From: a virus
Lineage: Duplodnaviria > Caudoviricetes
DNA length: 64,000 nt
Reading direction: 5' to 3' (one strand)
IMG/VR virus record: IMGVR_UViG_3300028888_000053
Span: 128,001-192,000 of that record
Shown here: positions 1,554 through 20,862 of the stretch, one piece after another
How positions within the stretch are numbered: position 1 is the stretch's first letter
Layout of the letters: every line of letters starts with the position of its first letter
Notes under the pieces: generated by a model
Database searches by the model: none
The model's input: the letters and a program-made list of their open reading frames with translations, nothing else
Told to the model about the DNA's origin: nothing
Translations under genes and position numbers: made by a program

Positions 1554-3311
1554 TCAAATTGTTAATGCTAAGTTGTAACCACGTACAGTTTTATTTGCTA
1601 TTTTTTTAACAACTTGTTCAACCTTATACTCATGACATTCTTCTATTAAGGCTGCTTTTGGTTTTAATATCTGTATATTATGTCGTCTAAATGCATTAGC
1701 AAAAATTGTTTTTAAAGTAGAAGTTGCAACAAAACCTTCTTTGAAGATTTCTCTAAAGATAGTTGGTAATAGTCTTTTTTCATTTAATAACTATAACAAT
1801 TTATCTTTATTGTAATCTAAGGTTTCCATTTCTCCTGTAGTTACGTATTTACAAAGATCTTCGAACTCTGGATAATCTTCTAAAAATGATTCATCTTTAG
1901 TTCTTATGTATTCTTTAAGTAAAGTACTATAACTAACGCTTCTTGCTCTTTTTAAAGCGACTTCAAAGCTATCCCAATAGTGTTGCTTTAGTACATTAAA
2001 TTTAGAAGATCTCTTATAAGCATCTGTTATATGTAATCCATTCATATATGATTCACGTAACTTTTGTTTGTAAATTAAATATTGCTTTTTAAGCTCATTG
2101 TATTTAATTCCATCTTCTTCCATAGAAACAATGTCTGCTTCTAAGTCAAGACGCTTAGCAAGTAAAGCTAATTGCTTTTTTGTCATTTTAGCAGACATAT
2201 CAATTAATGTGTGAGCATCATCTTCTTTCTCTGCCATTTGTTCTTCAAACTCTTCTTTAGAAGGTAATATGGCATTGGTAGAGTATAAATGAATAAGTCT
2301 ATCTCTAAAGATATTTTGATGCTTTTCATTAAAGCGAATTCTACCTGCGATTTGTTCCATTGTGGTTGATACATCTACTAAAGTATATGTTTTCTTTGCA
2401 TCTGACACTACTATCATTAATCCGTTGTCAGTAAATAGATTACAACCTTGGAAACACTTTTTAGTAAAGAAATTCAATGTCTTATTTGGAGCTGAAACAG
2501 ATTCTATTTCATATCCATTTAATAAGTATCGATTATAAGATTTATCTGCACAACAAATTTTTACTAAGTCTGGATCTAATTTTAATGTATCACAGACTTG
2601 ACGAATACTCTTAACAGAATTAAAGAAAATATATAATTCTCTTACGTTGTGCTGTTTTCCATCTACTCCTTGTAAAGATAAACCATGTTCTAAAAATTGT
2701 TCAATTATCTTTGCTAAAGTACCAGTGACATTCGGAACTTTATAACGCATTGGTGTTAATTTAATGGTATTATCCCATTTTATTCTATAGTGTGGTAATT
2801 TATTTAGAAATTCTATTTCTAAAGTATCATCAATAGGAGTTGCAGATAAAAAAGTATAATGATTGTAACGTGATACAGTATTCATTAAACTTTCAATGGC
2901 TGATTGACGAAAATCCATATCTTCTAAAATAAGATGGTATTCGTCTATTAGTACTTTATATTCTAATATTTCAGAACCAAGCCATTTAGTAAGTTTTTCG
3001 AAACTATCATAAGTAACTGCAATTTTACGCATGCCAGGATTCATTTCTAGATAGTAATTCAATTCGAATTTTTTAAAGCCTTTATAACCTTTAAAAACTT
3101 CATACTTATTATTCTTATCTTCCGCAATACTATCTATTAAATCAACAAACGGACATACTATAATGTATTTACAATCACAATTGGCAGCTAAATAAGTTGC
3201 ACCAACATCGGTTTTGACTTTATTTAATACTCCATGAGGAAGTCCATGTTCAAAACCATGAATTTCGCTAACATAACGAGCACCTTTCGAATCAATTTCT
3301 CTATATTCCAT
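1554..3311 (-). CDS. SF2 helicase-like putative origin-binding/replication initiator protein, 585 aa with TAG(1791-1793) read as Gln
   Basis: Motifs KTDVGAT, LIDEYH, LSATP, FQGCN, QIAGRIR; frame stays open 78 codons past the TAG to a TGA at 1554-1556; flanked by repeat arrays. Confidence 0.75.
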
Positions 3312-3398
3312 ATTACATTAAAATTAAATTATTAATACTAGTGCAATTATAATATAGAGATATATAGAAATCAAATAAATTAAAGAAATAGTAAAAAA

Positions 3399-3781
3399 GT
3401 TACATTTTTTTGTTCGTATAGTGAAAAATTTCCGTAAAAATGTAACCTTGGCTTTTAATTCATTTATTTTAAATTAGTTATAACACAGACCTAATTTTGC
3501 TGAAAAAAGGTTACATTTTTTTGTTCGTATAGTGAAAAGTTTCCGTAAAAATGTAACCTATATTTCAATGATTGATTTTATAAATATTAAACTTTATATC
3601 TTATTTATTTAATAATAAAAAAGGTAACATTTTTTTGTTCGTATAGTGAAAAATTTCCGTAAAAATGTTACACATACTATTAATTACTTGGTTTTTAGGT
3701 ATTTATACTAAGAATGTAATTTTGCTGAAAAAGGTTACATTTTTTTAACCGTATAAGTAAATTTATCCGTAAAAATGTAAC
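3399..3781. repeat. four 48-bp palindrome-ended repeats with 62-66 bp AT-rich spacers (candidate replication origin)
   Basis: GTTACATTTTTTTGTTCGTATAGTGAAAAATTTCCGTAAAAATGTAAC-like units at 3399, 3510, 3624, 3734. Confidence 0.9.
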
Positions 3782-3794
3782 CATCAATATATAT

Positions 3795-3872: not shown

Positions 3873-4016
3873 AGAGGAGTAGCTCAACTGATAGAGCGTA
3901 GCATTTTAAATTATACAAATAGTGTCGAAGCCAGACATCAGTACTATTGTAACAAAATATCATGTAGATGTGATAAGTTAATGCTAAGGTTATAGGTTTG
4001 AATCCTATCTCTTCAA
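3873..4016 (+). tRNA. tRNA-Lys(TTT) interrupted by a 71-nt insertion (3907-3977) between positions 34 and 35
   Basis: Removing 3907-3977 gives TAGCA-TTTTTAA-TGCTA and an intact cloverleaf; the insert ends in G. Confidence 0.75.
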
Positions 4017-7479: not shown

Positions 7480-7485
7480 ACTATT

Positions 7486-7965
7486 ATGGAGAAATATTTT
7501 ATTATTCGTGCAAACGAATGGTGTCTATATTGGATTAAAGGCACAATAAAAGATTTGGAGTTATTTTTAAAGTCTTTAAATATTAATATTAAGACTTATA
7601 AAAGTATTAACTATCATGATATGCATTTGATTTATAATCAAAAGATTATCACTGAGGTTACTGCTTTGGGTTATAATTCCGATTTGTATGAAGAGTTGAA
7701 AAAAGAAATCTCAACAAGATTGATTAATATAAATAGGGAGGCTTATAGCTGGCATAAAGACAAGTTAGAAGATACTTTGCATGCTGTTTGCGATCATGTT
7801 CCTGTTAAGTCTAATAGAATTGATATTTTAGTTAGTGATGGTAAGGAATATGAATTACCTCCTAATCATTTTTGTGGTAGAAGAACATTCATAAAATTCT
7901 CTGACGTTGATTTAGCTGAGTTTAAAAGACGTGTTAGAGATGTTGGTTATATAGAATTATGTTAA
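7486..7965 (+). CDS. hypothetical protein
   Basis: ATG at 7486 just downstream of the terminator. Confidence 0.65.
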   Translation: MEKYFIIRANEWCLYWIKGTIKDLELFLKSLNINIKTYKSINYHDMHLIYNQKIITEVTALGYNSDLYEELKKEISTRLININREAYSWHKDKLEDTLHAVCDHVPVKSNRIDILVSDGKEYELPPNHFCGRRTFIKFSDVDLAEFKRRVRDVGYIELC

Positions 7966-19304: not shown

Positions 19305-19586
19305 ATGGAACTGATAGACAAATCCACTTTAGTAGCGGAAATAGAAAAATTAAAAGATGAAGCAGAGATATATCCGTCAGATTTTTATTGTGGTAGATTA
19401 TCTCTTTGTAAAGAACTGATTAATTTTCTCGATACTCTTGAAGTGAAGGTGATGGATTTGGAAAAGGAGTTTAATGAATACATGCGGTCTATTACTATCA
19501 AAGATATAAAAGATAAGCCATTCACGCAATTATTTGCTTGTGCCAAGTATTTCTTTGAACTCGGATTGCAATCAAAAGAAGAATAG
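19305..19586 (+). CDS. LIDK-family paralog
   Basis: LIDKSTLVAEIEKLK...FLDTLE...AKYFFELGL. Confidence 0.7.
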   Translation: MELIDKSTLVAEIEKLKDEAEIYPSDFYCGRLSLCKELINFLDTLEVKVMDLEKEFNEYMRSITIKDIKDKPFTQLFACAKYFFELGLQSKEE

Positions 19587-19588
19587 TT

Positions 19589-19861
19589 ATGAAATACATT
19601 GACGCAGAACGCATAAAAAAAGAAATAAGAAAATTGGCAGATTGGTACCAAAACATATTGACTGATGACTTGTGCGATAAACTTATTGATTTCGTTGATG
19701 CTGCCATGCCATTTATTCCACCACAAAACTCTCTACAAGAAGAAGCGGACTTAGAACGAGAAATTACACGAGTATCAAAAAATGAGTATTTTGATTTTAC
19801 TGATTGGAAATCTATTGCTCGACATTTCTATGAATTTGGATTAACACAGAAAGGTGAATAA
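19589..19861 (+). CDS. LIDK-family paralog
   Basis: YIDAERIKKEI...ARHFYEFGL. Confidence 0.7.
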   Translation: MKYIDAERIKKEIRKLADWYQNILTDDLCDKLIDFVDAAMPFIPPQNSLQEEADLEREITRVSKNEYFDFTDWKSIARHFYEFGLTQKGE

Positions 19862-20090: not shown

Positions 20091-20862
20091 TATGACACAA
20101 CAGGAAAAACAAACGGTTAAAGATTTTCATCGTCATTGTATGACATATCTTTTTGGAGAATTTTCTTGTAAAAAATGCAAGAAACTTATTAAACCAAGTG
20201 ATTGTATTGGGTGTCCCATTAAAAATAGTTAGTTATGAAATACATTGAACAATATCTACAAGACGTTGTTAAAATTAAACCATTAGGTAAAATTACAACG
20301 AAAGAAGATGAACTTAATGGTTTTTCAGGTGAAATGGTATATATCGATGGAAAATGTTCTGATATATTTATTTCTCATGCAGATTATGCCAATTATTTAG
20401 AAAGTGTGATTAATGAATACGTAGAATGGGAAAACGAAAAACAGTAGTACAAGAATATCTTGATTCATTAACTAAAGATGATTTATTAGCGATCATAAAG
20501 TATGGTCTTCGTGGTTCTAACGCTCCATTAGATGTTGATGTTGAAGACATTTTTACTTGTATCGGTTGTAAATACATTGAAGAAGGATGATTTACTTAAA
20601 AAGAATTTTGAATTTATTCCTGTGGCTAATAAGAATTGTCGCAGGAATTGCAATTATCATGGTTATTTATCCACTTGATTTGTTAGCCATCCCTATTTAC
20701 TACGTCAAGACTGGACGTAATTATTTGTTAGACTTTAGACCGTTAGGATTTGCTATAGTGCGTTGGATTTGTGGATGCGATTTTGAATGGAAAGATAATT
20801 AATATTAAATAATAATTTAAACAGAATCTCTTGGTAGCTCAATTGGATAGAGCAACAGTCTT

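Follow-up and report, generated by a model that had tools for sequence, protein, structure and literature searches.

Gene organization at the helicase locus

The stretch of DNA analyzed here (the window, 64,000 nucleotides) corresponds to bases 128,001 to 192,000 of a 212,277-bp IMG/VR phage record with a GC content of 31.5%. ORF translation places a helicase gene on the minus strand at window positions 1554 to 3311, with an ATG start at 3311; it stands alone on the minus strand, flanked by small plus-strand genes and a tRNA array. Under translation table 11, the ORF (3311 to 1791, minus strand) has 506 codons and is ended by a TAG at 1793 to 1791, hereafter TAG507. Beyond this codon, 78 codons are open (1790 to 1557) before a TGA at 1556 to 1554. 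A single TAG after residue 506 followed by 78 more open codons is what a first-pass annotation of the locus had described, and the residues that it quoted match the translation exactly. Its description of the tail as basic agrees with a net charge of about +7 in the translation (14 K/R versus 7 E). A plus-strand gene at 1554 to 3311 was considered and rejected, since translation of the plus strand gave no ORF there. The features of the locus, in window coordinates, are as follows.

1419 to 1552, unstranded: four iteron-like direct repeats with a start-to-start spacing of 31 nt that start 2 nt beyond the helicase stop codon
1554 to 3311, minus strand: whole helicase gene, comprising the TGA stop and 585 sense codons if TAG507 is counted as Gln (ORF, full-length homologs, and AF2 model)
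1557 to 1790, minus strand: 78-codon tail, residues 508 to 585 (AF2 model, winged-helix matches, and codon changes relative to L001, a 98% identical relative)
1791 to 1793, minus strand: TAG codon 507, within a helix, where the alignment column is variable and of the surface type (ORF, AF2 model, and alignment)
1794 to 2276, minus strand: mostly helical middle region, residues 346 to 506, ending within helix 502-513 (AF2 secondary structure)
2277 to 3311, minus strand: two RecA-like domains, residues 1 to 345 (invariant columns, Foldseek matches in the PDB, and a weak Pfam DEAD match)
3393 to 3782, unstranded: four copies of a 55-nt element with a spacing of ~111 nt, between the helicase start and the tRNA array

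Genetic code of the phage

The two arms of the genome differ in their use of TAG. From 0 to ~124 kb, genes lie on the minus strand and contain 857 in-frame TAGs, or 21.4 per 1000 codons, a frequency equal to that of CAA. From ~124 kb to the end, genes lie mostly on the plus strand, and in-frame TAG occurs at 1.3 per 1000 codons on a greedy gene map. ORF coverage of the first 120 kb rises from ~0.3 to ~0.98 once TAG is treated as sense (counting ORFs of ≥100 codons, measured from stop to stop). The helicase gene contains one TAG, where ~12 would be predicted from the late-arm density. Two other helicases encoded by the genome, one DnaB-like and one SF2, are TAG-free.

A tRNA(CUA) gene sits in the heavily recoded arm at genome positions 110815 to 110890 (minus strand), ~17.1 kb before the start of the window. 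It was missed by ARAGORN with default settings and found by the Rfam tRNA model (38.7 bits), and relaxed ARAGORN settings gave the anticodon CTA. The tRNA has a GC content of 57%, and its acceptor stem starts with UGG, as does that of the phage's tRNA-Gln(UUG).

TAG codons also fall at invariant glutamine positions. The gene for an M15 endolysin (window 39246 to 39692) contains three in-frame TAGs and has TAG-free neighbors. TAG109 of this gene aligns with an invariant Gln among 26 sequences, and the endolysin relatives at loci L088 and L089 yield the same protein only when TAG is read as Gln. In the homologous helicase gene at locus L090, a TAG stands at the invariant Gln320 of motif VI. With a tRNA(CUA), 857 in-frame TAGs, and TAG at invariant Gln positions, it is well supported that this phage reads TAG as glutamine (genetic code 15), and the first-pass annotation was right on this point. 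A search of the genome for an RF1/RF2 or GlnRS gene that might explain how RF1 is overcome found none.

Some tRNA-like genes in the window have unusual features. At 3873 to 4016, a tRNA gene whose anticodon loop carries a 72-nt insert scored 45.5 bits against Rfam and was absent from the ARAGORN output; we considered it as a UUA suppressor and rejected this assignment, and no splice choice gives CUA. An odd tRNA-like gene with an apparent 6-nt anticodon loop (AUUUUA) lies at 34988 to 35057, and a low-scoring “tRNA-Asn” with the anticodon AUU lies at 13380 to 13453.

The tail as part of the helicase protein

A word-indexed search returned 1528 homologs. The best of these, mostly 586 to 590 aa long, align over 99 to 100% of the read-through product, and among them is a protein encoded on a Bacteroides chromosome and named “DEAD/DEAH box helicase family protein.” When 1.8 billion representatives were searched exhaustively, 1166 homolog clusters were recovered at an E value of ≤1e-3, mostly of ~560 to 650 aa and typically of 580 to 620 aa. 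Many homologs with 25 to 30% identity align as far as query residue ~580, and the tail motifs GF[VI]S, PKA[ST]LIE, and GY are conserved in the alignments. The first-pass annotation had proposed that homologs be aligned across the site, and it would have given up its reading if they ended at the TAG or if the extension showed no coding conservation. The alignment has sense residues at the TAG site and homologs that continue past it, and the extension is conserved as coding sequence.

Close variants of the gene tell a similar story. The 98% identical relative L001, from another sample, keeps TAG at codon 507, and its tail has neither indels nor stops. Of all codons, ~87% are the same in L001 as in the window; the tail differs by 8 synonymous and 5 nonsynonymous codon changes, and the core by 50 and 12, respectively. 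A third variant from another sample (P0394) likewise ends at residue 506. A protein of 585 aa (P0393), encoded on an ENA contig of 212,417 bp, matches the read-through product at every residue; most likely this contig carries the same TAG, because the protein collection translates some contigs with TAG=Q.

Public gene callers report the tail as a separate 78-aa gene (P0231). Across its 78 codons, no in-frame ATG, GTG, or TTG was found, and the tail therefore has no means of independent initiation and is reachable only by read-through. A look-up of the 506-aa ORF in the ESM Atlas returned matches only within its own family. These results support the view that the TAG interrupts one gene rather than ending it and that the tail is a conserved part of the protein. 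The locus is thus one gene, the full-length product of which needs amber suppression.

Domain architecture and predicted fold

An AF2 model of the read-through protein, built from a 39-sequence alignment, has a pLDDT of 88.4. In this model, residues 1 to ~345 form two RecA-like domains, residues 350 to 513 are helical, and the C terminus has an alpha-beta-alpha-alpha-beta-beta order. DSSP assigns the tail the end of helix 502-513, helices 515-521, 530-543, and 553-558, and strands 526-529, 562-571, and 574-583. The isolated C-terminal 90 residues fold at a pLDDT of 94.3 with a winged-helix topology and a beta-hairpin wing. The top VIA-align matches of this domain are all winged helices (Z scores of 5.0 to 5.7) and comprise cullin WHB, RFX, Cdt1, PadR, and the origin-binding domain of phage P4 (1ka8). 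Foldseek gave the C-terminal domain weak matches at E values of >0.2. The structure matches, which rest on predicted models, support a winged-helix fold and point to no specific function; the resemblance of the extension to a winged helix, proposed earlier from the letters, is borne out by the agreement of the AF2 topology and the VIA-align matches.

The core belongs to the SF2 type. Motifs II (DEYH), III (SAT), and VI (QIAGRIR) are conserved in the family, in which D123, E124, A157, T158, Q320, R324, and R326 are invariant. Motif I (window 3194 to 3220; residues 31 to 39) has the noncanonical form K-T-D-V-G-A-T, with the family consensus TGxGGT. It departs from the canonical Walker A motif (GxGKT/S) in having no Lys before the Thr, and the invariant K31 lies upstream. 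Given this odd motif I, ATPase activity of the helicase is presumed from the sequence. Foldseek matched the core to DbpA, Vasa, XPB, RecQ5, and Hel308 in the PDB over ~365 residues (E value of 4e-9), and a Pfam search of the protein gave a weak DEAD match. Sequence-profile searches of PHROGs, NCBIfam, and the PDB gave nothing useful for either the protein or the tail.

One homolog of ~900 aa has an N-terminal BT4734-like domain, which we take to be a primase-related fold. In Bacteroides, homologs of the helicase adjoin integrases. This is a large, uncharacterized helicase family found in phages and on Bacteroides chromosomes.

Codon 507 and other interruptions among relatives

Homologs carry K (10), A (5), S (4), N (4), Q (4), E (3), R (3), and other residues at column 507, and at least two of the four Q residues are themselves TAGs read as Q. 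The column is variable and therefore uninformative on the identity of the residue as Gln. The AF2 model places residue 507 within helix 502-513 rather than in a linker. TAG507 was seen only in a lineage of 98 to 100% identity, and relatives at 62 to 63% identity have K or T. Exact-pattern scans of viral and metagenome collections found no close relatives with another codon at 507.

How the protein collection was translated bears on these comparisons. Code-15 translations (“with_TAG=Q”) account for P0122, P0208, P0272, and probably P0393. We considered P0272 (a 97% endolysin relative) and P0393 as cases in which CAR codons had replaced TAG and rejected both; some contigs of the collection are translated with TAG=Q, and the two proteins therefore provide no evidence of TAG/CAR turnover. 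In a protein translated with code 15, a Q may conceal a TAG, and readings of recoded sites from alignments must take this into account.

The helicase gene is uninterrupted at 67 of 80 viral loci. Elsewhere, TAG occurs in this helicase at about residue 132 (L034 and L036), 194 (L049), 357 (L092), and 516 (L011). A helicase with 48% identity (L090, 3001 to 4749) has 14 in-frame TAGs, one of them at column 507, and its gene is fully recoded. TGA occurs at W110, W179, and other positions in helicase loci whose frame needs TGA as sense.

The 22-kb phage contig L012, which reads better with TAG as sense, has a frame change in the helicase at an A5 run near residue 505 (7480 to 7770), with an intact winged helix encoded in the -1 frame beyond that point. 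The change reflects either an error of assembly or a frameshift at this same domain boundary. The TAG of L011 and the frame change of L012, both near the boundary, may be a hint of selection for an interruption at that point; of five independent single-TAG events, two fall near the boundary, which is not a significant share. On a 183-kb phage contig (L013, 6001 to 8445), the region matched to 579 query residues by tblastn extends over 2445 nt, and the first ORF stops after 589 codons; the long match may reflect a second partial copy or an insertion.

The RNA downstream of TAG507 folds no better than shuffled sequences (z = 0.04), and the +4 base and neighboring codons resemble those of the 857 ordinary sense TAGs. 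Because RNA structure is absent, the context is ordinary, and relatives at 62 to 63% identity have no TAG, the site does not resemble one of programmed, site-specific read-through. A scan with a strict Bacteroidota promoter motif gave 17 matches, mostly intragenic, and sigma-70 promoter matches were below the shuffle expectation.

TAG as an apparent stop in the plus-strand arm

In the TAG-poor arm, 22 ORFs contain TAG, and in 8 of the 22, the TAG lies 0 to 7 codons ahead of the next TAA or TGA, often at what looks like a typical gene junction. Seven of these ORFs, which seem to end in TAG and have a backup stop, lie in the window at the following positions of the plus-strand arm; the eighth is just past the window end.

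8981 to 9268
15432 to 15800
19305 to 19592
20235 to 20471
36967 to 37602
37759 to 38163
62676 to 63194

The mean distance to the backup stop in the eight ORFs is 3.9 codons, compared with 16.9 codons after TAA or TGA terminators (P of ~0.005, a value subject to ascertainment bias). In the remaining TAG-containing ORFs of this arm, the codon stands either within the first ~20 codons, where it probably reflects an overextended start, or well inside the ORF. Since at least eight ORFs in the arm of the helicase seem to end at TAG, the codon is not unambiguously sense there. TAG probably terminates several early-arm genes, with read-through buffered by the backup stops.

Repeats and a possible origin-binding role

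Within the 212-kb genome, the 31-nt-period repeat is confined to 1419 to 1552, and L001 has a related set. By the homologous helicase genes of L002 and L003, no comparable iteron-like repeats were found. Each 55-nt element on the other side of the gene consists of a 12- to 14-bp inverted repeat around a 26-nt spacer, and the full element is unique to 3393 to 3782 in the genome. The minimum of the cumulative GC skew is at genome position 124,410, ~5 kb away. The repeats at 1419 to 1552 are a possible binding site or origin element.

Sequence searches returned no PF02399 (UL9) match at an E value of ≤1 for the protein or at ≤0.01 for 39 family members. A search of BFVD gave an unnamed 606-aa protein as the best match, followed, as the best named matches, by “replication origin-binding proteins” of the UL9 type. 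These matches, from giant viruses and one herpesvirus, had E values of 1e-12 to 5e-9, TM scores of 0.4 to 0.5, and large root mean square deviations. The origin-binding role that the first-pass annotation gave to the helicase is plausible, with circumstantial support from these structural neighbors and from the nearby repeats.

Explanations for the interrupted gene

We postulate that this is a single code-15 gene in which TAG507 is an ordinary, young sense TAG and that the full-length protein is functional, a reading to which we give a probability of roughly 0.75. The helicase would then be a 585-residue SF2-type protein with a C-terminal winged helix. The phage tRNA(CUA) would decode TAG507 as glutamine, at a position in a helix that appears variable and tolerant of Gln and where the TAG would be evolutionarily young. 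As a side effect, synthesis of full-length helicase would presumably have to wait until the suppressor tRNA is active, and where host RF1 wins, a 506-residue product lacking the winged helix would be released. We infer that ribosomes read through codon 507 in vivo and that the helicase acts in replication, possibly by binding the adjacent iterons.

The first-pass annotation had gone further and suggested that TAG507 is a device for making two isoforms and timing replication. RF1 would stop translation early and yield the core, and suppressor tRNA would later yield the full-length protein, at which point replication would start or change. Such a deliberate switch would agree with the general model of Borges et al. 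and would fit an arm in which TAG appears to be a real stop in at least eight ORFs, such that both meanings of TAG coexist. The position of TAG507 is also suggestive, in that termination there removes exactly the winged-helix module. Every known variant of the lineage retains the codon, an independent TAG lies 8 to 9 residues away in L011, L012 changes frame at ~505, and the gene has 1 TAG rather than the ~12 that late-arm density predicts. However, because the codon is confined to a lineage of 98 to 100% identity, with K or T in its place at 62 to 63%, its conservation carries little weight. Single TAGs at 132, 194, and 357 lie in the RecA core, where truncation would give no useful isoform, and one phage has 14 TAGs spread along the gene. 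TAG507 is in a helix rather than a linker and has no special RNA structure or context, and the two events near the boundary among five are not significant. A young, lineage-limited TAG, interruptions at other sites elsewhere, and the lack of RNA structure speak against the switch, which we regard as unlikely. We are also doubtful, and slightly more so, of the idea that TAG507 is a selected gate through which a core without the winged helix is made before the suppressor accumulates and an iteron-targeted full-length protein is made later, with L011 and L012 as parallel solutions.

It is very improbable that TAG507 is a recent nonsense mutation in a gene that is being inactivated or shortened, with a decaying tail. 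The TAG is young, and the gene lies in an arm where TAG can terminate, but two diverged variants have tails with no indel or second stop, and substitutions in the tail are mostly synonymous or conservative. The tail, moreover, retains all family motifs and folds at a pLDDT of 94, and the phage encodes an amber suppressor for Gln along with 857 sense TAGs. We give still less credence, very little in all, to read-through that is programmed and independent of the suppressor, as in Q-beta A1, or to a split gene encoding two polypeptides. The separate public call of the 78-aa tail would suit a split gene, yet the tail offers no in-frame ATG, GTG, or TTG. Programmed read-through is opposed by downstream RNA that is indistinguishable from shuffles (z = 0.04), by a context like that of the 857 sense TAGs, and by the presence of a dedicated suppressor tRNA. 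A single recoded gene with an ordinary sense TAG thus remains our preferred explanation.

As it stands, TAG507 is the expected consequence of code 15. Annotation under the standard code breaks the gene up, as public gene calls show, into a “helicase” of 506 aa and an orphan of 78 aa and hides a conserved helicase and winged-helix architecture that is common to >1000 protein clusters of phages and Bacteroides chromosomes. The locus is also a clear case of a gene that is associated with replication, lies in the mostly standard-code arm of a dual-coded phage, and needs a suppressor tRNA. If this dependence were regulatory, the model of the code switch as a timer would extend from lysis and structural genes to replication.

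Comparison with known systems

Recoding of TAG to Gln has been described in gut phages, including crAss-like, Lak, and related phages (Yutin 2021, PMC7886860; Borges 2021; Peters 2022, PMC9523058; see also Ivanova 2014, as cited in Yutin 2021). In one of these reports, reassignment is found mostly in late genes, with a PolB gene containing multiple TGA codons also noted (Yutin 2021), and the code switch has been proposed as a regulator of late genes (Borges 2021, preprint, 10.1101/2021.08.26.457843). The same preprint reports replication modules that are standard code in some clades and “variably encoded in alternative code” in others. In Zeta crAss-like phages, a recoded stop disrupts a helicase ORF, and backup stops follow rare TAGs (PMC12386605, 2025). 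Recoded stops in phage replication genes are therefore already published, and TAG507 is an ordinary case of a known code change.

The phage studied here shares with other code-15 gut phages a genome of two arms, one heavily recoded for TAG and the other mostly standard, its own tRNA(CUA), and TAG at conserved Gln positions. It does not differ from them in kind; what this locus presents is a single TAG in a helicase-winged-helix family within a TAG-poor arm.

UL9-type proteins of herpesviruses and giant viruses (PF02399) likewise place a C-terminal domain of the DNA-binding type after an SF2 helicase, and as structural neighbors in BFVD, they are better than the generic DEAD-box matches in the PDB. 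They are, however, ~850 to 1300 aa long, compared with 585 aa here, where the C-terminal domain is a simple winged helix. Herpes simplex virus also makes a C-terminal-only isoform (OBPC).

The alpha protein of phage P4 (1ka8) has an iteron-binding winged helix at the C terminus of a phage replication helicase, and in our phage, iteron-like repeats adjoin the gene. The match to 1ka8 (Z score of 5.1 and a root mean square deviation of 2.6 Å over 67 residues) is tied with those to many unrelated winged helices, such as cullin WHB, RFX, and Cdt1, and so speaks to fold only. The P4 helicase is of the SF3 type and fused to a primase, unlike the SF2-type helicase described here.

In Q-beta A1, read-through likewise appends a functional C-terminal domain, and two products are possible. 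Q-beta A1 arises by leaky termination at one site, whereas the phage described here has a genome-wide reassignment of TAG with a dedicated tRNA.
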